Shown one piece after another: positions 1,564-45,540 of a stretch of DNA of 64,000 nt. The notes below the pieces were generated by a model that saw only the letters and a list, made by a program, of their open reading frames with translations, made no database searches and was not told where the DNA came from. This DNA comes from an uncultured Candidatus Bathyarchaeia archaeon. Its GTDB lineage: Archaea; Thermoproteota; Bathyarchaeia; Bathyarchaeales; Bathycorpusculaceae. The translations under genes and the position numbers were made by a program. The stretch's first letter is position 1. Every line of letters begins with the position of its first letter. Location: positions 19,587-83,586 of the forward strand of contig CAZRVS010000006.1 in assembly GCA_964603675.1 (NCBI GenBank). Reading direction: 5' to 3'.

Positions 1564-1780
1564 CCGTGGTTTCTCGAGTGTCCGGGGGAAATTCTATTTA
1601 CACGCGCGCGCTAAAACAGGGCGGAAAGTGGAGTGCGGGGGTTCCCAACACACGTTTACCGGTAAAAACTTTTGATTTAAGGTGGAATTACCTGTTCCAA
1701 AGCTCAAATGCGATGAAGCCCAACCATTTGCTTTGCATGCATATAATCTGCCATCTGCAAAATAACTCTGTTACAAACAA

Positions 1781-2125
1781 TTAACTGGCTAATTGTTTGG
1801 CCAGTTCCGCGAAGAAAAGGTCAATTCGCTGCCTTGTTCGTCCAAATTCAACCATCGCCGTAATCGTCGTAATTGGTGTCTCTGCCGCAACTGAAACTCT
1901 CGTCGTGTTCTCGTCTACAGGCACCGCGTCAATTAGAAGTACTGAACTCCATGACATGAGACCTGCTTTCGTCTTTGCTTTAACGTGATGCGCTGTGTCA
2001 TCAATTTGTTCCATATTCCATTCTAGGCTGGTGAGCGCCTTTGGAATAGCCGTCCAAACCTTGTTTACGTGATAATCTATTTCTACTGTCTCCTTCTCTT
2101 TCCGCAGGTAAGCCATCTTATCCAC
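1781..2125 (-). CDS. hypothetical protein (possibly SRPBCC-like small ligand-binding fold)
   Basis: 114-aa ORF with normal composition. The fold guess rests only on the beta-rich pattern followed by a C-terminal helix. Confidence 0.4.
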   Translation of the reverse strand: MDKMAYLRKEKETVEIDYHVNKVWTAIPKALTSLEWNMEQIDDTAHHVKAKTKAGLMSWSSVLLIDAVPVDENTTRVSVAAETPITTITAMVEFGRTRQRIDLFFAELAKQLAS

Positions 2126-2436
2126 AGCAAATCCCTTCGGCGCCTTCTATTTAAAAACTTAGCGCGTGCTAAGAACAAAAAATGATAGAACGCTTTCTAG
2201 AGAATGGAGAAAAATTGGAAAACTGCAAAGTTCTCTTACACCGCTGCCGCGCATCCACAAAACAAATCGGCCAGGACAGAGTTCTTATTCAAAAATTCCT
2301 AGAGAAGGCTTCACTATAGTTCTAGAAACTCCATAGAAGTTTAAAGTCGAATTGTGCGGATGTACGCAGTAATATTGTACCAAATTTTTGCTTTTTTCCT
2401 ATTTCAATCGTGTTACTGCGCACGCGCTCAGTATTC

Positions 2437-3027
2437 TCATTGATTTTTCACCTCCGTTCGATTTTTCTTTTCTTTATTGAGTCCATATCTTCCAAACTCT
2501 TCTAGGCTTACGATTTTCTCCAGTTTTTTCTTTCTTCTGAAGAAATGCAAAACCTTGCTTGCCAAGTCCACTGTCTCACGACGATAACCTAATGCTAGAA
2601 GAGCTACTACTCTGAATCTTTCTGGGATTCTTAGAAGTTTTTTAACATGATCCTCGTTGAAGCTTCCAATCCAGCATGTAGCCAAGCCTTCGCTGGTAGC
2701 GGTCAAAACCATGTTTTGCATAGCAATAGTCGTATCAACCACATGCCAGTTGGGCGACGCTTTTTTATCTCCGCACCCCACCAATACAACAGGTGATTCC
2801 ACCAAGAACTTGGCGTATCTTTCTTTTGACAGCTTCTTCCTTTTCTGTTGGTCGGTGACAACTATGAAGTGCCATGGTTGTATGTTTCCAGCAGAAGGTG
2901 CCAAACGTGCGGCTTCCAAGATTTTTTTCAATTTCCCCCTCGGCACTTCACGGGACAGATATGACCTAACTGAATGTCTCTTTCGGATTGCCTCAAACAC
3001 TTCCATTGGATCTCCCCCATCGAGCAA
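2437..3027 (-). CDS. nitroreductase family protein
   Basis: The N-terminal EAIRKRHSVRSY ... ILEAARLAPSAGNIQPWHFIVV is the classic nitroreductase signature. Confidence 0.85.
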   Translation of the reverse strand: MLDGGDPMEVFEAIRKRHSVRSYLSREVPRGKLKKILEAARLAPSAGNIQPWHFIVVTDQQKRKKLSKERYAKFLVESPVVLVGCGDKKASPNWHVVDTTIAMQNMVLTATSEGLATCWIGSFNEDHVKKLLRIPERFRVVALLALGYRRETVDLASKVLHFFRRKKKLEKIVSLEEFGRYGLNKEKKNRTEVKNQ

Positions 3028-3229
3028 GACTTAGTCCGAATTAACTGATATGTGATTCAGCATGTATTGTGTGTGGGAAGGCTTAAATTTTAACCCCCAA
3101 ACCCAACAATTAGCGCGCGCGACAAAATCGTGCTTGTGGGAAACTTGTTTTATAGTTTCTTTGCGCTTCAATCTTTAAACTGTAGTATGGCATAGGTTAT
3201 TGTTAGTATGAGGTCAGGTTGATGGTTGT

Positions 3230-19498: not shown

Positions 19499-21094
19499 TT
19501 ATTTTGGCTCCTTGCGCACTTTTTTGCGATATGCTCTCCAAGTGATTGCCCATCGTGAAGGGGCATCCAACGGCGCGTGATCAATTTTGTGCACAGTGCT
19601 GTTATGAGGTGCTGTTTTAACGAGTTCAGGATTAACGTATGCCTCTTCGGCTATGTGCCTAATTATTTCGATGTATTCGTCAATGTCTGCCTTGGAGTAT
19701 GATTCTGTAGGTTCAAGGGTGCAAGGCTCAGGAACTATCCACGGGTGATGGCTAGTCCAGTAATGGACACCAAAGTCCGCAGCTCTAAGCCCAATTTCTT
19801 CGGAGTGAACTCCAGTGTCCCTTGCCAGTTTCTCCCAGCTATACCTCACTTGCTCAATGCGACGTTTGCCTTTGGCATAAGGTGCGCTTGCTCCAAGTAT
19901 CTCCAATATCTTCTTCAGCAAATAGTTGTTGTTGAGAACAGCGATATCGGAAACTTCTCTCAGTCCTTCTGCGCCGAGACTCATAACCCACGCATATGCC
20001 TTCAGCACGACTGGTGCGACCCCATAAAAGGATCTTACTTTTCCAATGCTTGCTGGCCTATCATAGTTTAAATGATACTTTTTGCCATCGAACTCGATAA
20101 CTGGAATTGGCAAGAATTTCGCAAGTTCTTTTGTGGCACCAATGGCACCTACTGCGGGTCCACCACATCCGTGGGGCGATGAGAAGGTCTTATGCAAGTT
20201 AAAATGGCACAGGTCAAAGCCAGCTTCTCTTGCCCTAGTTATGCCCAATATTCCGTTAGCGTTTGCTTGGTCATAAACGCATATTCCCCCCGCTTCATGA
20301 ACGATCTTGACGAATTCCTCAATTTTCGGGTTAAAAATTCCCGTGTCCTCTGGGTTAGTTATCATCAGTCCAGCCGTACGTTTCGAGGTCGCTGTCTTCA
20401 ATCCCTCAAGGTCAGGATAACCATCTTCATCTGGATAGAGGGTAACAACCTTAAAGCCTGCGGTTTTAGCGCATGCCGCGTTGGAAGGATGAGAGAATAT
20501 CGTAGTGATTATCTCATTTCTTTGGGATAGTTCCTCCCGAGATGCGTGGTAAGCTCTTATGATTGATGCGTTTGCATATATTGCTTGGGAACCCGCGCCG
20601 GGTTGAAGTGAAAACTGGTCCATCCCTGAAATTGCTTTGAGGATTTGCTCGAACTTGTACATTACCTCCAGTATTCCTTGGACGGTATCTTCGTCTTGTA
20701 GTGGATGAATTTCCGTCATCTGGGGCAGTCTGGCTAGCTGCTCGTTGATCTTAGGGCTGTATTTCATTGTGCAAGTTCCTTGGCCCACATCAATGTTCAG
20801 ATCTGTTCCCAAGGTTTCCTGTGATAGCCTTATGTAGTGCCTTAACACTCGTGGTTGCGAAATTTCTGGCAGTTTAGGCATTTGTCTTCGACGCATCTTT
20901 TCAGGTATGGTTGAAATAACATCGTCAACTTCGTTTTTTATTTCATCCTCAACTTCTGGTACGAGGATTCCTCTCTCTCCTTCTTCGCTTAGTTCAAAAA
21001 TTATCGGTTCGTCCCATTTAGCTTGATGAAAACGCCTTAAGTTTGGTTTTCCACTAGTATATCTTTTCTTGGTTACGTCTTCCATTTTACTCAA
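19499..21094 (-). CDS. gcvPB: glycine dehydrogenase (decarboxylating) subunit 2
   Basis: Typical P-protein C-terminal-half sequence, with the PLP lysine context NLHKTFSSPHGCGGP. It overlaps gcvPA by 8 nt. Confidence 0.93.
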   Translation of the reverse strand: MSKMEDVTKKRYTSGKPNLRRFHQAKWDEPIIFELSEEGERGILVPEVEDEIKNEVDDVISTIPEKMRRRQMPKLPEISQPRVLRHYIRLSQETLGTDLNIDVGQGTCTMKYSPKINEQLARLPQMTEIHPLQDEDTVQGILEVMYKFEQILKAISGMDQFSLQPGAGSQAIYANASIIRAYHASREELSQRNEIITTIFSHPSNAACAKTAGFKVVTLYPDEDGYPDLEGLKTATSKRTAGLMITNPEDTGIFNPKIEEFVKIVHEAGGICVYDQANANGILGITRAREAGFDLCHFNLHKTFSSPHGCGGPAVGAIGATKELAKFLPIPVIEFDGKKYHLNYDRPASIGKVRSFYGVAPVVLKAYAWVMSLGAEGLREVSDIAVLNNNYLLKKILEILGASAPYAKGKRRIEQVRYSWEKLARDTGVHSEEIGLRAADFGVHYWTSHHPWIVPEPCTLEPTESYSKADIDEYIEIIRHIAEEAYVNPELVKTAPHNSTVHKIDHAPLDAPSRWAITWRAYRKKVRKEPK

Positions 21095-36383: not shown

Positions 36384-38537
36384 CTAGTAGGCGCAGAACC
36401 AATAATCTCCGCGAAGAATATGAGGCGCTGCGTTCCAGAAGACGGCCACAAACACGTGTCCTGTGTTCACATATTTTTTCGGAATCGTTAGCGAACCGCC
36501 GCTAAAGTCCCAAACATTGTGAAGCATTCCTGGTTGGAAGTTGATCATCTTGCCAGTGCGTATATTGTAACGAACGCTTGGGTTTCTGTAGGGCTGAATT
36601 CCCGTGACATCTATGACTGCGCCTAGCCAGTTGTTCGGTTCGAGCCCTGTGGTTCTAGTCCAGCCTTCGCTTGTCCAACCATCTTCACCTGGTTCAACGT
36701 CATCAAAGAAGCCGATTTCTGGAATTTCAATGTCATCGATGTAAATTCCTTGTTCGTTGTATGCTCCGTCAGTCCAGTAGACGAAGTATAGGTCTATGTC
36801 GTGTCCAGCAAAAGCCGTTAGATCCATTTCTTCTTGATAGTATCCTGGGCTGAATCCTGTTAGGGCATACCATTTACCAGCAGAGTAGTAGTCCTTTGGC
36901 TCTCGCCCATCTGGTGTGTTCGGATTATCTTGTTCGTGAGGTAAGGTTGAAGTTGTTTCAAGTCCTTCAAGGGTCGTCCACTCGTCGACCGTCTTGTCGT
37001 ATACTTCCACATATGCATAGTCCCAATCCTGTTCAATTTCATAGAAAGTATAAAACATCAGAGTTGCGCCACCGATCGGAATCGAGAACGTTTGACCCAG
37101 TTTTCGCCAAGCCCAGTTGCCCATGCCTCCATACCAGTGATAATCTCCGCTGTAGGCCGATTGCCCAGATATGGCGTCCCCTTCGTAGAGGAAATTGACT
37201 TTTTTTCCTGCTGGAGTGAACCAGAATTCCCAATAGTTCACGGTGTAGGGTTGAACTGTCCCAGGCCACAGAGATGCTTGCCAACTGAATCCTCGATTGA
37301 ACTCCATACCGATCCACCAGTTCCAAAGGAAATATTGAATTGAATAACCCCACGTGTCAGTTGAAGGAATATCTAAACTGAAGTAGCCGTATTTGCCATT
37401 TCCGAGGGATGTATCGTCGATGTAGTTGGCGATGGCCCAGTTATGGAAGACTGTATCAAAAGTGATCGCGTATCCGAGAGAATCGAGTGTATCTTCAATT
37501 CCTTCAATGCCGTTGAGTGGGTTTTGCACAAGTTGTGAAATAAAGTTTGCTCCACCATAGTGTTCAGAGAGATATAGGGTGAACAGGTAGCTGGCTCCAT
37601 AGTCTTCTAGCCCGCCACCCCAGAAGGTCAGGGAAGTGAATGGGTGATAGGCTAAGTAATTTACAATATGGTCCTGTGGATGTCCGTAGCCGCATAGAAA
37701 TCCAGCGAAATCTGAACATCCTTCATTAATCCAGTCATCCTCATCAGAGTCTATATCGAAATGGATTAGATGCTGGAATTCATGTGCCACAACGCCCTCA
37801 TACAAATATGGACGGTACGCAGGGCCTCCCAATGGCGGATTCGGTCCTAATCGCCATGTCAACTCGTACGTGTCAATGTGAATAATGTTCGCATCGTTGA
37901 GTTGACTAACTGCTGACGAGAAGTATCCAGCAATGTAGAATTCTGCTGTCTCAGGAGACCAAAATATCTCATCTCTAATGTTAAAAATCAATATGTCTAT
38001 CTTTGTGTTGCCTGCCGGCCGCTCATTTGGCATGCCGAAGTAGGTGGTGTCAGTTGGATAGATTACCTCGTCAAATTGTTCCAGTATGTACGTCAGGTTT
38101 TCACGGGATATGATATCATGATATCCTTGCCAAAGCCAAGAGGTGCCAGTGTCACTCCAAGGGTAGAAGAAGTGGAAATTTCCTTCAGCATCTTCATAGT
38201 CCGCGACAACAGTTGCGTTTGTCAATGTGATTGAATCGTTCAGTCCAATCCATATTCTTCCATGTTCTCCTTCATACACCAACTCAAAATCTTGTGCATA
38301 TTCGATGCCGAGATAGTCGTCATCTACCATTATGGTCCAGGGGTTCCCAGTGTCTGGCTCCATATTTCCATATTTTAACAAATATGCTCTGTTGTCAATT
38401 TTCGATGTGCCACAAATCCAATCCAAATCTCTTGAAAACGACTGTTCAGTTTCTGCTTGCGCAACCTGAACGAACGCCAACGAAAAGCTTGCAACAAGCA
38501 CCGTAATAGCAACTATTGAAAATAGTTTTTTATTCAA
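36384..38537 (-). CDS. secreted zinc metalloprotease, M6/InhA-like
   Basis: Signal peptide, then VAHEFQHLIH (HExxH) followed by WINEGCSDF. Confidence 0.7.
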   Translation of the reverse strand: MNKKLFSIVAITVLVASFSLAFVQVAQAETEQSFSRDLDWICGTSKIDNRAYLLKYGNMEPDTGNPWTIMVDDDYLGIEYAQDFELVYEGEHGRIWIGLNDSITLTNATVVADYEDAEGNFHFFYPWSDTGTSWLWQGYHDIISRENLTYILEQFDEVIYPTDTTYFGMPNERPAGNTKIDILIFNIRDEIFWSPETAEFYIAGYFSSAVSQLNDANIIHIDTYELTWRLGPNPPLGGPAYRPYLYEGVVAHEFQHLIHFDIDSDEDDWINEGCSDFAGFLCGYGHPQDHIVNYLAYHPFTSLTFWGGGLEDYGASYLFTLYLSEHYGGANFISQLVQNPLNGIEGIEDTLDSLGYAITFDTVFHNWAIANYIDDTSLGNGKYGYFSLDIPSTDTWGYSIQYFLWNWWIGMEFNRGFSWQASLWPGTVQPYTVNYWEFWFTPAGKKVNFLYEGDAISGQSAYSGDYHWYGGMGNWAWRKLGQTFSIPIGGATLMFYTFYEIEQDWDYAYVEVYDKTVDEWTTLEGLETTSTLPHEQDNPNTPDGREPKDYYSAGKWYALTGFSPGYYQEEMDLTAFAGHDIDLYFVYWTDGAYNEQGIYIDDIEIPEIGFFDDVEPGEDGWTSEGWTRTTGLEPNNWLGAVIDVTGIQPYRNPSVRYNIRTGKMINFQPGMLHNVWDFSGGSLTIPKKYVNTGHVFVAVFWNAAPHILRGDYWFCAY

Positions 38538-38718: not shown

Positions 38719-38970
38719 ATGCCCTATTATGTTTACGTCATATTATGCAAAGGCGGCAGTTTCTATACAGGACACACTAAAAACTTGGACATGCGCATGA
38801 GGCTTCACATGAATGGGAAAGGCGCCAAATACACAAGGATGCATAAGCCCCAGAAACTTGCTTACGTTGAAGAGTTCACCTCTCGAGCAGAAGCGATGAA
38901 AAGAGAGAGAAAAATTAAGAAAATGAATCACCATCAAAAACTTGGATTGATAAACTCGGAGGCTAAATAG
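38719..38970 (+). CDS. GIY-YIG nuclease family protein (UPF0213-like)
   Basis: YYVYVILCKGGSFYTGHTKNL ... RMRLH ... AMKRERKIKK. Confidence 0.85.
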   Translation: MPYYVYVILCKGGSFYTGHTKNLDMRMRLHMNGKGAKYTRMHKPQKLAYVEEFTSRAEAMKRERKIKKMNHHQKLGLINSEAK

Positions 38971-39070: not shown

Positions 39071-39541
39071 ATGCCAAAAAAGAAAACATGGACTGAAAAA
39101 TTGCACGATAGCAAGGACCTGCCTAAAGTGGAGAAAATTACTGACAAAATGAGCAAAAGATGGGGCACGGGCACAGTAGTTATTCCAGCGCCCATAGAAG
39201 TCAGTGAGATAATGAGAAGAGTGCCCGAAGGAAAACTTTTGACCATTAATGACATCCGCGCGGCCCTTGCCAAGAAACACGGAGCAACAATTGGCTGTCC
39301 AATAACTACTGGCATATTTGCTTGGGTCGCGGCCAACGCTGCTGAAGAACAAAAACAAAAAGGCGAAAAACAAATCACGCCATACTGGCGCACGCTGAAA
39401 AAGGGTGGACAGATAAACGAAAAATATCCAGGTGGCGTTGAAGCCCAAAGGCGACTTCTGGAAAAAGAAGGACACAAGGTAATTCAAAAAGGCAAAAAAT
39501 ACGTTGTTGTAGACTATGAAAAATCACTTGCGCAAATTTAG
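39071..39541 (+). CDS. MGMT-family DNA-binding domain protein (alkyltransferase-like, no catalytic Cys seen)
   Basis: VPEGKLLTINDIRAALAKKHGA ... TPYWRTLKKGGQI parallels the helix-turn-wing and PCHRV region of MGMT, with Tyr-Trp in place of Cys-His. Confidence 0.45.
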   Translation: MPKKKTWTEKLHDSKDLPKVEKITDKMSKRWGTGTVVIPAPIEVSEIMRRVPEGKLLTINDIRAALAKKHGATIGCPITTGIFAWVAANAAEEQKQKGEKQITPYWRTLKKGGQINEKYPGGVEAQRRLLEKEGHKVIQKGKKYVVVDYEKSLAQI

Positions 39542-39598: not shown

Positions 39599-40843
39599 TT
39601 ACACAATGAAAGTCAGTGCTACACCTGTGATTAGAGGTATTGCAAGATTATCGTTCACTGGCAACGGCAGACACTCTATTATCATGGCTATCGCCGCGCC
39701 TATCATCGCACCTAGAGGGAATATGAAAAACAAACCTCCAAAAAAGGCAAAAAAGAATCCGATTGTTGACCCTACTAAAGTCTTACCTTTATTGAAAGGC
39801 AACGTTGGCCCCCGAAATAGGCCACCAAAAAATGACGCGGCGCTATCTCCAAGTGCAAAGATCGCGATAGCCGCGCTACTCGTCGGAGCAGGGAAGACCA
39901 GTAACGTAAGTAAGATGCCTAGGGCAAAAAATATAGGAGCAGTTGCGAATTCATGAAGTTCCGTTTGCGATACTGCGCGATGAGTTACTGAGGAAATTAA
40001 GGGCAAGTGTCTTTTTTCCATTCTTCCAAACTCGGATATCACGTACAAGATGGTAACGGTCAGGGTTATCAAAGCAAACGTGTAAAAGCCAATCAAGCTG
40101 GATACGGCCGGAACGAAAAAAGCAGAGGCGTGAACTGCCTCTCGAAAAATGTCATTTTTGGAGGGTGAACTTTCTTTCTTTGGCATTCCGCCCACTAAAG
40201 GCATTATATCCAGCAGCTTTCCCGTTACAACGTTATCTGCTCTAGTGCGTATCAAAAAGTCAGGGTTATACCCTATCTTCAGCGCTTTCCGAAGGAACAT
40301 TGATGCGTTGTTTCGATCATCAGCCACCACGATGCAGTCTTTTGGGGTTATCCCTTCCGTTTGCAAGATTCTTGATAGAACCTTGAACTTTCCATTATGC
40401 TTTATGACGTCACCCCAAATCTCACCTGTCAAAACGTCATTTTTAGTTTCTAGCTCAAGACCGAAAGCAAAGTCCGCTTTGAGTGTGCTGGCTAGATCCG
40501 TGACAACTACGCTTGGTAATCCAGAACTTATCAAAGCAGTTTTCCAGCCTTGAATCCTAAGTTTCTCAAAGACCCCTTGCGCGTCAGGCATCAAAGGAAC
40601 TTTTTTAAGAATTCGCACCAGCTCTTCGATTTTGATGCCCTTGAAAAGTTTGAAAACGTGTTTGAGAGCAGATTCTAATGAGATCAGGCCGAGTTCATAA
40701 AGAAAACCGTAAAGGATGATCCTTACCAATTGTGAAAAACCAAGAGATTTGCCGATTTCTAAAAAGTAGCGGTTCTTGGGTATTAGCACTCCTTCAACAT
40801 CGAAGATCACGAGTCTTGATTTGTTGTTTTGTAGCGTCGTCAA
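39599..40843 (-). CDS. fusion protein: HAD (SerB-like) phosphatase domain plus a polytopic dolichol/phytol kinase-like (CTP-transferase family) domain
   Basis: The N-terminus has LVIFDVEGVL (DxD/E HAD motif I) and VVADDRNN. The C-terminal ~190 aa are hydrophobic, with ALGDSAASFFGG ... KGKTLVGS. Confidence 0.65.
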   Translation of the reverse strand: MTTLQNNKSRLVIFDVEGVLIPKNRYFLEIGKSLGFSQLVRIILYGFLYELGLISLESALKHVFKLFKGIKIEELVRILKKVPLMPDAQGVFEKLRIQGWKTALISSGLPSVVVTDLASTLKADFAFGLELETKNDVLTGEIWGDVIKHNGKFKVLSRILQTEGITPKDCIVVADDRNNASMFLRKALKIGYNPDFLIRTRADNVVTGKLLDIMPLVGGMPKKESSPSKNDIFREAVHASAFFVPAVSSLIGFYTFALITLTVTILYVISEFGRMEKRHLPLISSVTHRAVSQTELHEFATAPIFFALGILLTLLVFPAPTSSAAIAIFALGDSAASFFGGLFRGPTLPFNKGKTLVGSTIGFFFAFFGGLFFIFPLGAMIGAAIAMIIECLPLPVNDNLAIPLITGVALTFIV

Positions 40844-40964: not shown

Positions 40965-42311
40965 TTACTGAGCTTGAGCGCAAATGTAATTCTTGTTTTG
41001 CAATTCTAGGGGGCATCCTCCGCCGCAGATTTGCAGTTGTGGGCAGTTCTTGCATTTCGGCTCCACATATCCCCTCTGTCTTATCTGTGTTGCAAGGGGA
41101 TGGTTCCATATTTTTTGCCAGTCATCCTTAAGGATGTTTCCGAGGCTTTCGAAGTAGCTTTGACAGGGGTAAACGTCGCCGTTTGGCCCGACACACATGT
41201 TTATCATTGCGGCTGTGCAGAATTTCACGCCCAAGCCGAGTTTAACAGGATCAAGACGGCAATATTGAGTTGGCGTGTACCATAGAAACTTTAACTCGAG
41301 TTCGTTGGCTTTGTCGCGGATCTTGGGCAAAAGTTCGTTTAGCCTTTCCAATGGCATAGCGAATTCTTCGCTTATGGCGCTTGCCTTTCCAGAGTAGATT
41401 AGGCTGTTGCATCCAAAAGCTGCAATGTCGAGCTCTTTCAGGAAATCTATGGTTTCCAAAAAGTCGGGAGCGTTGTATTTGCTGAGGGTTGTGTTCGTGG
41501 TTACGTATATTTGCGTTTTAACAGCGTTTTTTATTCCGGCCACGCTTTCCTTCCAGTTTCCTTTAGCGCCAGTCATGAAGTCGTGAACCTTGGGCTTATG
41601 GGACTCCAAGGTTACTTGAACAAAGTCCAGTCCAGCTTTTTCCAAAGTTTCAACATACGCTTTGTCCTTTAGTCTTCTGCCGTTTGTGACGAGGCCGGTG
41701 ACCATGCCCTTGTTCTGCGCGTAAAGCAACAGTTCTGGCAGGTCCTCGCGTAAAGTGGGTTCGCCCCCAGTAAAGGTTAAGATGAAGATACCGATCTGGC
41801 TTAGAGTGTTTATCACTTCTTTCCATTGCGCCGCAGTTAGCTCTGGTGTCTCGTGAGGTCCGCCAGAGTAGCAGTGAATGCAGTTGTTTTGGCATCTAAA
41901 AGTGAGCGCCATGTCCATGCGCAATGGTGCTGAAAGCTGTTGGCTGAAGGGCTCAACGCTCTTTACGTCGAGGAAGGATATGGGACAAACCTTCTCAGTT
42001 TGGGCCAGCGTGCCAATCGTGTAAACGAGTTTCTCATAGTCTTCCTTTGCTTTCTCCGGGCCTACCCTGTACATGCGATGGATCTTTTTCAAGACCGCGT
42101 CTTCAGGCATTCCCTGCATGAAATAGTAGGCATAGGCCGTTGCCGTTTCATTAAGATGAAGAACAGTGTTAGCATTGATTACTATGATTCCCAACCCGCC
42201 TGCTTCAACGCGGAGCTGAAGCGCCAAACCTGCAAATTCATCCTTTCCCCTATAGGTATAACGTCCAATGGGAATTTCGGGCGGACGCAAAATCTTCCTA
42301 AAGAAGCTCAT
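40965..42311 (-). CDS. radical SAM/SPASM domain peptide-maturase-like enzyme with an N-terminal PqqD/RRE-like domain
   Basis: CQNNCIHC (CxxxCxxC), GGEPTL, and the C-terminal CTAAMINMCVGPNGDVYPCQ ... CKNCPQLQICGGGCP (SPASM). The N-terminal VLHLNETATAYAYYFMQGMPEDAVLKKIHRMYRVGPEKAKEDYEKLV resembles PqqD. ATG 42311 lies 2 nt after the upstream stop, with GGAGGTG 11 nt upstream. Confidence 0.88.
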   Translation of the reverse strand: MSFFRKILRPPEIPIGRYTYRGKDEFAGLALQLRVEAGGLGIIVINANTVLHLNETATAYAYYFMQGMPEDAVLKKIHRMYRVGPEKAKEDYEKLVYTIGTLAQTEKVCPISFLDVKSVEPFSQQLSAPLRMDMALTFRCQNNCIHCYSGGPHETPELTAAQWKEVINTLSQIGIFILTFTGGEPTLREDLPELLLYAQNKGMVTGLVTNGRRLKDKAYVETLEKAGLDFVQVTLESHKPKVHDFMTGAKGNWKESVAGIKNAVKTQIYVTTNTTLSKYNAPDFLETIDFLKELDIAAFGCNSLIYSGKASAISEEFAMPLERLNELLPKIRDKANELELKFLWYTPTQYCRLDPVKLGLGVKFCTAAMINMCVGPNGDVYPCQSYFESLGNILKDDWQKIWNHPLATQIRQRGYVEPKCKNCPQLQICGGGCPLELQNKNYICAQAQ

Positions 42312-42313
42312 TT

Positions 42314-43939
42314 TCAGCCTACACCTCCGCCTGCACAAGCGCAAGCACATGATACACAAGCACACGCGCAAGCGCATGCTGCGCATGCACAAACGCAACT
42401 TGCATCGTGACGTGCTGGTTCTGATGATGCCTTGGCTGCGGGCGCTGGCAGGATTGCGTTGGCGAACTTTTCCAGATTGGCCACGATGTTGTTCGAAGTT
42501 TTTTCCACGGCAGTTGCAATGTTGTTTGCAAAGTCAGCGCCTGGAACTGTCGGCGGCTTAGCTGATTGGGCGGGCGTCTCCACGTTTGGCTTGTACGTAG
42601 GATTGGGGTGATAATGTTGATAACTGTACCAGTACCAGAACCAAAAGGGACTAGGCTCGAAGGCTCTGTCGCGAAATGCAGTTTGTGTGCGGGATTGATA
42701 GTTTGGATCAAGCAAAAGCCATAACAGTTGCTCATCATAAGCTTTTGAAGCTAATTCAGGCGTCCCAGCCTGTTCCACTTGTTCCCATGCCTTAGCCGCA
42801 ATCTTCCTGTAGTAGTCTACAGTGTCACGTCTGCAGTATCCCCGCAGTTTTTGTTCCACAGTATCTCTTAGAAACATTACTGTTTTGGCTAGCTTTTCCT
42901 CGTCAAGGGTCCCGTCGTTTTTTATTGCGTCGAGAAAGTCGATTTCATAGTATCTAAGCTGCGTTTCTTCAGTTCCAGTTTTTTTCTGAAAAGATGGCAT
43001 AATCTTCAATTTGAGAGCGGGGTTTGTGGATTCGACCCATACGGCCCTTTTCTGTAAAAGGCTGTAAAGCATCTCTGTAACCAATTGCGTTGGTTTCATG
43101 TCTAACAGGTAAGATGCTTCCACCGCCGTCAAACCACGACTTATTCCCAAAGTTTCCATGCTGACCTTAGGCGTCAAATACGGTCGCTTGCGGACCGCAA
43201 CAACCCCGATGCCAACTATAACCACGAACATTCCGATTATCAAAAAGGCAGGCCAGTACCGTTGCAAAAAGACAAGTGCACCAGAAGGCGGCTCGTATTT
43301 CTGCACATAACCTTCTGGAAAAGAAATTCCCACAGGGTATTGCATATCTGGAACAAGACTGTCTTTCTGCCAGTAAACTACCAGTCTCCCATCTTCTACC
43401 GATGTGTTGTTCCAGAATACTTCAGTTGTTTTCACCATTTCTTGAGTAACGTTGGGCGGCAAAACAATGGAAATGCGAAGATCGGAGACTGGAACAGGCC
43501 ACCAAACTGGAATGAATAGCATTCCGTCGTTGCCTGGATTTTTCTCATCCGGCACCACCATGCCTGCAACGTTAGTGATAAGTGTGAACCAGATGGTTTG
43601 TCCAGCTTCTAAGGGTGTGCTGAGGCTAACGTTCGCCCTGTAATTGTCTCCGCTTGACGCGTCTGTAGCTACTAAGCTGTTGCCATACTGGTCTTTGGCT
43701 TCGCCTATGGTGAAGTCGCGCACAGGTTGACCTACGTAAACGAAGTTTATGTTTTTGCCAGAATCAAGCCTAAGTGTAATGTTGTAGAAGAGGTCTATTG
43801 ATCTGTTCTCGTTTATCCATATTTTCACCCATTGATGATCGATGTAATACACTCTTTCTTGTGCTGAGGCAACACTTGCAAGCATTGCAAAAATGAATAT
43901 TACGGATAATGCAATTAGTGGAAGACGCCTATTCACCAT
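42314..43939 (-). CDS. DUF2207-like membrane protein with a C-terminal Cys-Ala repeat tail
   Basis: A signal peptide and a ~200-aa ectodomain are followed by a TM helix (WPAFLIIGMFVVIVGIGVVAV) and a ~290-aa predicted cytoplasmic region ending CVCACAACACACACVSCACACAGGGVG. Confidence 0.75.
   Translation of the reverse strand: MVNRRLPLIALSVIFIFAMLASVASAQERVYYIDHQWVKIWINENRSIDLFYNITLRLDSGKNINFVYVGQPVRDFTIGEAKDQYGNSLVATDASSGDNYRANVSLSTPLEAGQTIWFTLITNVAGMVVPDEKNPGNDGMLFIPVWWPVPVSDLRISIVLPPNVTQEMVKTTEVFWNNTSVEDGRLVVYWQKDSLVPDMQYPVGISFPEGYVQKYEPPSGALVFLQRYWPAFLIIGMFVVIVGIGVVAVRKRPYLTPKVSMETLGISRGLTAVEASYLLDMKPTQLVTEMLYSLLQKRAVWVESTNPALKLKIMPSFQKKTGTEETQLRYYEIDFLDAIKNDGTLDEEKLAKTVMFLRDTVEQKLRGYCRRDTVDYYRKIAAKAWEQVEQAGTPELASKAYDEQLLWLLLDPNYQSRTQTAFRDRAFEPSPFWFWYWYSYQHYHPNPTYKPNVETPAQSAKPPTVPGADFANNIATAVEKTSNNIVANLEKFANAILPAPAAKASSEPARHDASCVCACAACACACACVSCACACAGGGVG
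42332..42397 (-). repeat. coding region for the (Cys-Ala)n tail, 10 Cys in 22 residues
   Basis: The codons are heterogeneous (TGC/TGT; GCA/GCT/GCG), so the repeat is maintained at the protein level and is not a DNA microsatellite. The tail is a local GC-rich island. Confidence 0.8.
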
Positions 43940-44271
43940 TTCGGTTCCTCAGCTACCTCAAAAGTCTGTCCACAATAAGGACAAGTGGCGTATGGCACGC
44001 CCGAAACAATTTTGATTTGGTCAGCGTTAACCGAGGCTGAACAGTTCGGGCATTTGAGCGCCACTGCCTTCATCTGCCCAGAAACTTCCAATCTTTGAAC
44101 TATCGTCTTCGGCTTTCGGGTTATATAATAGGCTATTCCGAAACCAACAATGAACAACATGCCCGCAACAATAAGCCTTGTAAGTTCGTAAACCGACGCA
44201 AGAGCAAAGATTATACCGAAAAAGAAAAGAACTGCAATCGCGATTGCACCCAACACTGTTTTGAGACTCAT
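43933..44271 (-). CDS. membrane protein with a C-terminal zinc ribbon
   Basis: Two TM helices followed by CPNCSASV ... CPYCGQTF. Its stop overlaps the start of the next gene (ATGGTGA). Confidence 0.6.
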   Translation of the reverse strand: MSLKTVLGAIAIAVLFFFGIIFALASVYELTRLIVAGMLFIVGFGIAYYITRKPKTIVQRLEVSGQMKAVALKCPNCSASVNADQIKIVSGVPYATCPYCGQTFEVAEEPKW

Positions 44272-44445: not shown

Positions 44446-45540
44446 TCACGTTTTCTCAGCTTGCTTTCTTGGGTGCATTGTAGCATACGTGGCAGTTATG
44501 GCAAGTAAGGTGAGTGCTGCTCCCGAGATTGCAACTAAAACCAGTAGGGCTTCCGCCACGTTACCGATTAGCGCACCATCAGGCAACGCGCCTTTCCAAG
44601 TGATCATCACATCCGAAGTTAGCTCGCTTACGTCACCTTCGTATGTCAAGCCATATAACCAAGCACCAGTCTTCATCAGTTCTCCCAGCCTTAGGTCTAT
44701 TTTGGAGATCTCGCTGTTCGAAAGCCAAGTGCTCAACACGCCTTCTTCACCGGAAGTATGATACGTTGTCAGTCGAAGTGGATAGTATTCGTAACTTGAC
44801 TGACTAATGTTAGTTTTAGTGAGAAGGAAGAGGTTTATGTTTGTGTTTCCACCCAAGGGGCTGGTTATTGCCATAGGATAGTAGAGAAAGCTTGTATTGA
44901 ACCAGTAGAGTATGGGCTCAACGCTTTTTTGCTCTGCAGAAACGGTTATTATGTCCAGAACGTAGTATCGGAATCCCCTCGCCATGTATTCTTGAACCAC
45001 TGGCTCAAAGTTCCGAAGAGAAACCTCTTGGGTAATGTTGTTATTTTTCAGAAAACTTTTCATCCAATCCACAAGCTCTGACGAATCACTAGCCATTACG
45101 ATTGTGATGTCGTGCGAGCCAATCTTCTCATGGAAGACAATTTGTGGAGCTTCAATTGCTCCACCTCGACCCATAAAATTGTCCTTGTATGTCTGGCGTA
45201 GCTTTTCATTGAGAATCTCCTGAAGTATTTCGAACGATTTGAAACTCGCAAGCTCCACTCTGCTGGGGTTTGACGGCAAAGGAAGTATTTCCACAACAAA
45301 AGTTTCGCCAGTTGAAAATACGTCGGTGGAAAGAATCAGTATTTCCTCTTTCCCATCCCAAGCGATGATTGCTTTCTGTCCTGGCTCATATATCGAAATA
45401 TCCGTGCTTACGGGGATCAGCCCCCTGTCAGCCTTGACAACTGAGATAGTGGCCGTTAGAAAAATTAGAACTGAGATCAGAAACATTATTTTTGATGTTG
45501 TCTTCAAATAGACCCCAAATAGAATTTGAAGTTGTTCCAT
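44446..45540 (-). CDS. DUF2330-like exported protein with a C-terminal membrane anchor
   Basis: N-terminal signal anchor, then ISIYEPGQKAIIAWDGKEEILILSTD ... VVEILPLPSNP (DUF2330-like onset) and a C-terminal TM helix. Confidence 0.55.
   Translation of the reverse strand: MEQLQILFGVYLKTTSKIMFLISVLIFLTATISVVKADRGLIPVSTDISIYEPGQKAIIAWDGKEEILILSTDVFSTGETFVVEILPLPSNPSRVELASFKSFEILQEILNEKLRQTYKDNFMGRGGAIEAPQIVFHEKIGSHDITIVMASDSSELVDWMKSFLKNNNITQEVSLRNFEPVVQEYMARGFRYYVLDIITVSAEQKSVEPILYWFNTSFLYYPMAITSPLGGNTNINLFLLTKTNISQSSYEYYPLRLTTYHTSGEEGVLSTWLSNSEISKIDLRLGELMKTGAWLYGLTYEGDVSELTSDVMITWKGALPDGALIGNVAEALLVLVAISGAALTLLAITATYATMHPRKQAEKT

Follow-up and report, generated by a model that had tools for sequence, protein, structure and literature searches.

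Linkage of a radical SAM/SPASM enzyme to a Cys-Ala-tailed membrane protein in Bathyarchaeia and Bacteria: a predicted three-gene unit for protein tail modification

Enzymes which join a radical S-adenosylmethionine (SAM) core to a SPASM domain and are guided by a RiPP-recognition element (RRE; RiPP, ribosomally synthesised and post-translationally modified peptide) are known as makers of small secreted peptides, and those with Cys-rich substrates typically make sactionine or ranthionine links. Here we analyzed a window (the whole stretch of 64,000 nucleotides, positions 19,587 to 83,586 of the forward strand of contig CAZRVS010000006.1, assembly GCA_964603675.1, from an uncultured Candidatus Bathyarchaeia archaeon) in which three tightly packed genes on the minus strand form one unit. 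They encode a 112-aa zinc-ribbon membrane protein, a 541-aa membrane protein with a Cys-Ala tail and a radical SAM/SPASM enzyme with an RRE-like N-terminal domain. We put the probability that the unit as a whole serves the post-translational modification of the protein tail at roughly 60%. This reading rests on gene and protein sequences together with models, and the modification itself is predicted. A preliminary description of the locus had proposed that the enzyme modifies the tail, which is supported as far as computation reaches; the third gene (43933-44271) and the spread of the system over Bacteria and Archaea are added here.

The closest described systems are the sactipeptide and ranthipeptide maturases, namely AlbA, ThnB, CteB and PapB, which have a fused N-terminal RRE, and SkfB, which has another kind of N-terminal domain. 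Maturases of the AlbA/SkfB type share with the window enzyme a radical SAM core, a SPASM/twitch domain, an N-terminal extension of ~100-125 residues and a Cys-rich substrate encoded next door; SkfB is the best PDB match by sequence and by fold, and the AlbA model aligns from residue 49. They differ in that their substrate is a peptide of 30-60 aa whereas the candidate substrate in the window is the tail of a 541-aa membrane protein, whose core is almost without conventional acceptor residues. The window system also has no protease or exporter, is single-copy and highly conserved and looks housekeeping, and its scores lie far under the cut-offs of these families. The streptide (KxxxW) maturases SuiB and StrB have the layout of RRE, radical SAM core and SPASM domain proposed for the window enzyme, with a fold alignment of ~440 columns, but there is no Lys or Trp in the Cys-Ala core and a K-W pair is present only at the end of the small zinc-ribbon protein.

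In PqqE/PqqD and MftC/MftB a PqqD-type RRE guides the SPASM enzyme. The window enzyme has PqqE and MftC among its best NCBIfam matches (E 1e-33 and 8e-32), and PqqD is the best Pfam match of its N-terminal domain. In those systems the RRE is a separate protein, whereas the RRE-like domain is fused here, and nothing in the window tail corresponds to their substrates (Glu/Tyr, or a C-terminal Val-Tyr). The modification of functional proteins by SPASM enzymes has precedents in QhpD, which forms thioethers in QhpC, and in anSME, which converts Cys or Ser of full-size sulfatases to formylglycine. Unlike the tail protein, QhpC is no membrane protein but a small subunit of about 80-110 aa. The window tail lacks the motif targeted by anSME, C-x-[PA]-x-R or more widely (C/S)-x-(P/A)-x-R, and tails of type 2 end in CAGGGR, which does not fit it. 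Neither family is among the best 25 of the 71 NCBIfam matches of the window enzyme. A search of the available literature library found no paper on the enzyme-tail system, and in the curated Pfam and NCBIfam collections no family cut-off was reached by the tail protein or, as a named maturase, by the enzyme. An RRE-guided radical SAM/SPASM enzyme beside a Cys-rich substrate is an already known kind of arrangement; new are a candidate substrate that is a full-size membrane protein and has no protease or exporter at its side, a core so simple and invariant, the zinc-ribbon partner and the spread over two domains of life.

The cassette and its Cys-Ala tail

The features of the cassette are given below in the order of the genes, with the evidence in brackets.

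43933..44271, minus strand: 112-aa protein with two transmembrane helices and a zinc ribbon, first gene of the cassette (open reading frame, weak zinc-ribbon matches)
42314..43939, minus strand: 541-aa single-pass membrane protein with the Cys-Ala tail (open reading frame, hydropathy)
42449..42559, minus strand: conserved segment KPPTVPGADFANNIATAVEKTSNNIVANLEKFANAIL, residues 461-497, proposed leader-like docking site of the RRE (conservation; the docking is conjectural)
42332..42397, minus strand: Cys-Ala core CVCACAACACACACVSCACACA, residues 515-536, proposed modification site (conservation, codon analysis)
42322..42328, minus strand: GGAGGTG, Shine-Dalgarno-like site of the enzyme gene (inside the GGGVG codons of the tail gene)
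40965..42311, minus strand: radical SAM/SPASM enzyme gene, 448 aa, stop codon counted in (open reading frame and translation)
41997..42284, minus strand: probable N-terminal PqqD-like RRE, residues ~10-105 (model, Foldseek, Pfam, NCBIfam alignments)
41871..41894, minus strand: CQNNCIHC, the CxxxCxxC motif for the radical SAM [4Fe-4S] cluster, residues 140-147 (sequence)
40980..41261, minus strand: SPASM region with the auxiliary-cluster cysteines C351, C365, C373, C383, C420, C423, C429, C433 and C444 (Pfam and conservation)

The stop codon of the small gene overlaps the start of the 541-aa gene by 7 nucleotides (ATGGTGA). The tail gene ends in TGA (42316-42314), followed by AA and then by the enzyme ATG (42311-42309), and the GGAGGTG site lies within its last codons; the spacing of 2 nucleotides and the position of this site had both been read correctly in the preliminary description, as had the tail being the only Cys-rich candidate, since the cassette has no room for a separate precursor gene and no other Cys-repeat open reading frame or second cassette was found in the window. 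A scan for bacterial-type promoters and terminators did no better than shuffles, and the sole match of an Rfam scan is a distant tRNA-Ala. The length of 448 aa is taken as right for the enzyme because the start MSF(L/F)RK is conserved and is served by the GGAGG site. Upstream of this start the enzyme frame runs on without a stop as far as a TTG at 42398, through the DNA which encodes the tail (42312-42398, minus strand), and several database homologues are called at 456-474 aa with spurious N-terminal extensions (e.g. P0009, P0024, P0039, P0074).

The hydropathy profile of the 541-aa protein has a signal-like N-terminus and a transmembrane helix at about residues 221-252, followed by RKRPY. 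Because RKRPY stands directly after the helix, the ectodomain would be outside and the C-terminal half with the Cys-Ala tail in the cytoplasm, which is the side where a radical SAM enzyme with no signal peptide would act; neither a signal peptide nor a transmembrane helix was found in the enzyme.

The DUF2207 (PF09972, PF20990) and TIGR04222 families have a comparable layout of signal peptide, beta-rich ectodomain, transmembrane helix and a cytoplasmic domain starting G(I/V)xRGLTAxEAA. Their members often end in low-complexity Gly/Cys/Ser tails, and we know of no report of an invariant Cys-Ala motif or of a radical SAM linkage for them. The window protein matches neither family: Pfam and NCBIfam gave no usable match, DUF2207 (PF09972 / PF20990) did not appear even at E<=10, and the profile of the tail family had no usable match in the PDB. 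The matches appear below threshold in the relatives, with DUF2207_N found in 3/35 (23.9 bits at best, gathering score 24.4), DUF2207_C found in 6/35 (E 0.0013 at best) and TIGR04222 as well, and NCBI names some homologues DUF2207. On account of these matches and names the label "DUF2207-like", proposed earlier, is reasonable but distant and weakly supported.

The 541-aa protein ends in SCVCACAACACACACVSCACACAGGGVG, and the last part of it (...ARHDASCVCACAACACACACVSCACACAGGGVG) holds 10 Cys in 22 residues, arranged in CxC runs of 3, 4 and 3 Cys. All 10 core Cys are kept in 120/120 close homologues (66-100% identity). Conservation peaks in the cytoplasmic part, at residues 261-300, 361-420 and 461-480 (KPPTVPGADFANNIATAVE) and in the tail, the block 461-480 being among the most conserved with a mean identity of 0.95. 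The motif PG[AS]xFA..(V/I)..(E/Q), a conserved amphipathic segment, precedes the Cys core by 47-65 residues in Bacteria and Archaea alike; a narrow regular expression matched 87 of 211 proteins and a looser version in the remainder was judged by eye. The linker between this segment and the core is variable, Pro-rich in archaea and Gly/Ser-rich in bacteria. We propose from this pattern that the C-terminus of the 541-aa protein may copy the logic of a RiPP inside a protein, with a leader-like segment, a variable linker and an invariant core.

The core was also followed at the codon level. The archaeal scan took one genome per GTDB species, and counts of archaeal loci refer throughout to the best 80 of the 222 genomes which carry the enzyme. 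In these 80 loci codon positions 1 and 2 never change for 17 core codons (9 Cys, 6 Ala, Val14 and Ser15), while the third positions vary with minor-allele frequencies of 0.15-0.72 and are saturated. Only the first core Cys is ever lost, in the archaeal loci L042 and L082. The core repeat is under purifying selection at the protein level: with the third positions free and the first two invariant, it is held by selection on the peptide and not by a TGCGCA repeat in the DNA. Of the 63 loci scored, 47 have a GGAGG <=30 nucleotides before the enzyme start. The longer spacers, of 16-23 nucleotides, carry their own GGAGG and yet the tail still ends GGGVG, so this ending is not due to overlap with the Shine-Dalgarno site alone.

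In the relatives P0275 (659 aa) and P0298 (675 aa) an extra domain of ~90 aa, conserved and soluble, comes after the Cys core ..CHCVCACVSCACVCACVSCACACASGGG.. and makes it internal, hence the core need not be the extreme C-terminus.

These observations bear on the idea that the tail is a mere hydrophobic C-terminal anchor, or that its repeat is a feature of the DNA or RNA (TGCGCA palindromes, a coupling hairpin). Kyte-Doolittle windows above 1.6 over residues 510-541 and the ability of the tail DNA to form hairpins speak for it. As an anchor, however, the bacterial hydrophobic run would be short, only about 15-17 residues and broken by Gly, and the motif would not be expected to lie before a soluble domain as it does in P0275 and P0298. 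No nucleotide repeat is conserved since the third codon positions are free, and the RNA fold of the tail region is unremarkable (z = -1.05). Both forms of this explanation were rejected on these grounds and are regarded as extremely improbable.

The enzyme and its N-terminal domain

The enzyme is a radical SAM/SPASM protein. Pfam places Radical_SAM (PF04055) over residues 136-291 with E 4.2e-25 and 89 bits (gathering score 29.5) and SPASM (PF13186 / TIGR04085) over residues 365-424 with E 2.8e-11 and 44 bits (against 21.5). The CxxxCxxC motif was found where the preliminary description had read it, and its twin-cluster SPASM C-terminus was borne out by a full Cys pattern in keeping with the 7-Cys SPASM motif (Cx9-15Gx4C ... 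Cx2Cx5Cx3C ... C), C365-x12-G378-x4-C383 ... C420-x2-C423-x5-C429-x3-C433 ... C444, plus C351. Among 34 homologues C140, C144 and C147 are invariant and the SPASM cysteines are invariant or nearly so. Bacterial orthologues also keep C351, C365, C383, C420, C423, C429 and C433, the equivalent of C351 being two residues off in L087; the final SPASM Cys is absent in the enzyme of L083.

The enzyme falls in no named family because no NCBIfam family comes near its cut-off. The best scores are those of the tetrapyrrole enzymes NirJ2 (140 bits against 500), AhbC and AhbD, and the enzyme stays under the cut-off of every named SPASM maturase family considered (AlbA, SkfB, KxxxW, PqqE, MftC, ScmE, GeoRSP, NirJ/Ahb), with 117 bits against 381 for PqqE, 111 against 265 for MftC, 81 against 300 for SkfB, 74 against 850 for AlbA and 75 against 500 for KxxxW. 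The nearest solved relatives by sequence are the peptide maturases SkfB (E 3.2e-19), SuiB (1.5e-16) and PqqE (5e-11). SkfB and SuiB also lead the PDB fold search with the full-length AlphaFold model, which was used for coarse ranking of folds only since its predicted local distance difference test score (pLDDT) is 57.

The N-terminal extension had been put at ~150 aa and as an RRE-like domain; it is in fact about 125-135 aa, with the folded part at residues ~10-105, and the RRE assignment fared well in the relatives. PqqD (PF05402) is the top Pfam family for 12/18 archaeal N-terminal domains (best E 8.8e-4) and for 8/10 of a cross-domain set (best E 1.9e-6). The AlphaFold model of residues 1-130 has a pLDDT of 72 overall and about 80-89 over residues 11-100, with strands at 16-21, 30-35, 41-45 and 49-53 followed by helices at 55-65, 70-81 and 85-104; an RRE has a winged-helix fold of a three-stranded sheet and three helices. 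Its best Foldseek matches in the PDB are stand-alone leader-bound RREs, TbiB1 (5v1u/5v1v, probability 0.90-0.98) and the lasso B1 protein 6jx3, with TM-scores of 0.60-0.70 on the target. A cross-domain profile, built on a more diverse alignment, ranked TfuB1 first in the PDB. The alignment follows the pattern G-x-(I/L)-x-(I/L)-N-A...L-x-L-N-x-T-A ... Y-x-V ... D ... L, typical of a PqqD-type RRE, and the NCBIfam models of AlbA and of the KxxxW maturases align from residue 43-49 on, before the radical SAM core begins at 136. Each of these lines is weak and all are concordant; together they favour a PqqD-type RRE with putative peptide binding.

A paralogue of the enzyme (448 aa) is encoded at 1755-3101 of locus L107, between the active enzyme and the tail gene. 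It keeps the RRE-like N-terminus and the fold without the CxxxCxxC motif and may be termed a pseudo-radical-SAM protein; its Pfam Radical_SAM score of 29.3 bits is just under the threshold.

Linkage of enzyme and tail in Archaea and Bacteria

The genomes of the best 80 archaeal-type enzymes are all Bathyarchaeia except one record, L009 (DATKLC010000030.1), labelled Candidatus Krumholzibacteriaceae bacterium. This record has an archaeal-type cassette with an enzyme 81% identical to that of the window and is probably a mis-binned Bathyarchaeia contig; the tail-protein homologue P0143 bears the same label. A Cys-Ala-tailed open reading frame ends -4 to +23 nucleotides from the enzyme start in 79/79 loci with upstream DNA, whereas the genes beyond the cassette differ between loci, so that the pair outlasts complete turnover of its flanks. 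The small zinc-ribbon gene was found in 71/80 loci; those with no match are mostly short of upstream DNA and only L025 has room but no gene. No conserved protease or transporter gene accompanies the cassette in the archaeal and bacterial loci compared.

In the bacterial part, an exhaustive search of 50%-identity representatives gave 554 clusters related to the tail protein at E<=1e-3. The Cys-Ala tail is present in 113 of the best 150, the others being fragments, frameshifts or proteins sharing the ectodomain only. The tails are of the archaeal 10-Cys type, the bacterial type GGGG-CACACACAGCACACAGGGR, the type CACACACVSCACACACAGGGGCT and minor variants. Chloroflexota, Zixibacteria and Deltaproteobacteria have relatives at 26-50% identity whose C-terminus is CACACACAGCACACAGGGR. 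One bacterial tail protein has 977 relatives, named Anaerolineae/Chloroflexi, Zixibacteria and Deltaproteobacteria, and (CA)n-G-CACACAGGGR fits 116/116 tails examined among them. The element CACACA-x-GG is invariant across the archaeal and bacterial tail types.

In the loci L083-L087 the gene after the tail gene encodes a 440-456-aa Radical_SAM/SPASM protein which is 44-48% identical to the window enzyme, in L083-L086 over nearly the full length (residues 5-447) with the N-terminal domain included. Bacterial and type-3 tail proteins at 26-37% identity thus directly precede such enzymes, and the synteny of the window reaches these distant members. Among 19 metagenome loci the enzyme is present in 13, directly downstream in 11, at 1.9 kb downstream in L100 and upstream in L107, and two of the contigs stop at the tail gene. 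In L088 it lies 2.7 kb from the tail gene on the opposite strand, so in the rearranged loci L088, L100 and L107 it is still within about 2-3 kb. The recurrence in 79/79 informative archaeal loci and in the bacterial loci puts the pairing far beyond chance. Given the rearranged loci and the type-4 loci taken up below, the linkage across Bacteria and Archaea is near-obligate and strict adjacency is not universal.

A class-I SAM methyltransferase (Methyltransf_11, UbiE-like) follows the enzyme directly in three bacterial loci, L085 (9138-9800), L086 (9061-9846, with a 4-nucleotide overlap) and L101 (~2470-3105), and follows the tail gene directly in three others, L103 (~2400-2920), L104 (~2350-3010) and L106 (~2110-2650). 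In the latter three the type-4 tail CACACAGCACACACAGGGR is borne by two tandem paralogous tail proteins placed before the methyltransferase. Its presence in six bacterial loci is consistent with the tail being a hub of modification. The window cassette has no class-I methyltransferase.

The linkage also bears on the nature of the substrate. The enzyme could act on archaeal lipids or on a cofactor (as Tes, Gms, GrsA or NirJ-like enzymes do), its place beside the tail gene being an inherited gene order of no function. Bathyarchaeia make tetraether lipids, and GDGT-MAS (Tes, 7tol) is among the matches by sequence and by fold. The Tes match is, however, limited to the radical SAM core (residues 130-237, E 1.9e-9). 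The same gene pair is found in bacteria, which are not known to make such tetraether lipids, and it outlives its flanking genes. In Gms the N-terminal domain is made of six helices and not of the beta-sheet and three helices of an RRE (PMC11186832). The identity as a lipid radical SAM enzyme (Tes, Gms) was rejected on the core-only match, the different domain and the bacterial pair, and this whole explanation is very improbable.

The small protein of the cassette offers a further candidate. It has two hydrophobic helices and then a cytoplasmic CPNC...CPYC zinc ribbon, with homologues at 35-40% identity upstream in three of the five loci L083-L087 (L083 5469-5834, L085 5569-5973, L086 5606-6007), and its end EEPKW (EQPKW in L086) is kept in 78/78 copies read, archaeal and bacterial. 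The real substrate may then be this end, through a streptide-like Lys-Trp cross-link as made by SuiB/StrB or an MftC-like oxidative decarboxylation of the last residue, with the tail protein as partner or scaffold. The model of the KxxxW cyclic-peptide maturases indeed aligns over residues 43-440 of the enzyme (E 3.9e-21) and SuiB is a top PDB match. The KxxxW score is nevertheless far under its cut-off, the cassettes of L025, L084 and L087 have no small gene at their side whereas no cassette lacks the tail gene, and the enzyme is translationally coupled to the tail gene and not to the small gene. As the sole substrate this end is improbable, though it is a genuine alternative or additional one; a fixed C-terminal Lys-Trp beside a SuiB-like enzyme could mark a second substrate or a docking tag. 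The small membrane protein is probably an accessory or partner in the unit.

Predicted modification and neighbouring genes

The tail remains the substrate that we favour, with moderate confidence, on the grounds of its sequence and linkage. In the proposed mechanism the 541-aa protein would be exported with its N-terminus out and held by one transmembrane anchor, which would leave the Cys-Ala tail in the cytoplasm. The cytoplasmic enzyme would be made by coupled translation just after the tail, and its PqqD-like RRE would dock on the PGADFAN...E segment ~50 residues upstream of it. Chemistry of the 5'-deoxyadenosyl radical, together with two auxiliary Fe-S clusters, would then modify the (Cys-Ala)n core. 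Intramolecular cross-links from Cys sulfur to carbon, thioethers of the sactionine or ranthionine type, would be the most likely product because thioether-forming enzymes, SkfB and AlbA, are among the nearest characterised relatives, and SPASM enzymes with Cys-rich substrates provide the precedent; as a specific assignment, drawn by analogy, thioethers are plausible but on balance doubtful. Other chemistry is possible, for example epimerisation to an alternating D/L segment or oxidation of Cys. The outcome would be a membrane protein whose end is rigid, cross-linked or metal-binding.

Several observations weigh against such a modification. The candidate substrate is a 541-aa membrane protein and not a short precursor, and since the cassette has no conserved protease or exporter it is not a classical RiPP pathway. 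The acceptors for thioethers in the core are limited to Ala, Val, Ser and Gly, because of which the chemistry may differ from that of sactipeptides and ranthipeptides. The type-4 loci L103, L104 and L106 show no enzyme in the 2.3-3.5 kb downstream of the tail genes, with the upstream side cut by the contig end. In the enzyme, the N-terminal domain of the window protein reaches only E 0.08-0.1 with PqqD (13.4-13.7 bits against a gathering score of 23.4), so its assignment as an RRE rests on the concordance of the lines given above; the Foldseek E-values of its matches are weak (0.065-0.6), an archaeal-only profile of the domain matched no PDB sequence, and the full-length model is poor. Further, invariant cysteines in CxC spacing are equally expected of an unmodified tail which binds a metal or an Fe-S cluster.

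This last point leads to the strongest alternative, in which the tail is unmodified and resembles the CxC clusters of metallothionein, and the enzyme is linked to it for some other purpose, such as use of the tail as scaffold or donor or action near the membrane on a substrate that is not a peptide. The ten Cys within 22 residues, in three CxC runs and all invariant, agree with this, CACACA-x-GG would put three thiols on one face of an extended strand, and the top NCBIfam scores belong to the tetrapyrrole enzymes NirJ2, AhbC and AhbD. A simple thiolate cluster, however, needs no fixed Ala, Val and Ser between its cysteines. It also accounts neither for the RRE-like peptide-binding domain, which NirJ/Ahb-type enzymes are not known to have, nor for the conserved leader-like segment at a constant distance from the core. 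We consider an unmodified metal-binding tail unlikely, while giving it more weight than the other alternatives.

If the tail is modified, the unit would represent a new protein modification on an unusually simple, invariant motif (CACACA-x-GG) with a defined pair of substrate and enzyme, and a first clue to what DUF2207/TIGR04222-type proteins with low-complexity tails do. Here a large membrane protein appears to have the RRE-radical SAM machinery hard-wired to its cytoplasmic tail. The product could be a thioether ladder, a segment of alternating D and L residues or a metal-binding cofactor built into the protein. The identity of the enzyme over its more than 120 homologues (77-97% for the 120 closest) and between archaea and bacteria (44-48%) suggests a system conserved enough to be housekeeping. 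The fuller picture, a housekeeping system of Bacteria and Archaea in which an RRE-guided enzyme would make a new cross-linked structure, a RiPP core within a full-size protein, out of the near-invariant (Cys-Ala)n tail of a DUF2207-like protein, is tentative, at a little less than even chances. If the tail is unmodified, a strongly selected and unexplained Cys-Ala motif remains.

The neighbouring genes of the window were also compared with related loci. On the minus strand, 36384-38537 encodes a HEFQH metalloprotease-like protein of 717 aa which has an InhA-like MAM domain (E 5.8e-22) and 44446-45540 a 364-aa DUF2330 protein with a hydrophobic C-terminal segment. Both are predicted envelope proteins which flank the cassette here, and neither gene is kept beside it in other genomes. 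The gene at 39599-40843 (minus strand) encodes a 414-aa fusion of an N-terminal HAD/phosphoserine-phosphatase-like part (SerB model E 8e-29, below cut-off) and a C-terminal multi-pass membrane domain which matches no family; this gene type lies downstream of the cassette in 33/80 loci. On the plus strand, a stand-alone 83-aa GIY-YIG nuclease-domain protein (38719-38970, E 2.8e-19) has counterparts near the cassette in 41/80 loci, and a 156-aa protein in which O6-methylguanine methyltransferase is represented by its DNA-binding domain alone (39071-39541, 28.4 bits against 27) has them in 20/80.

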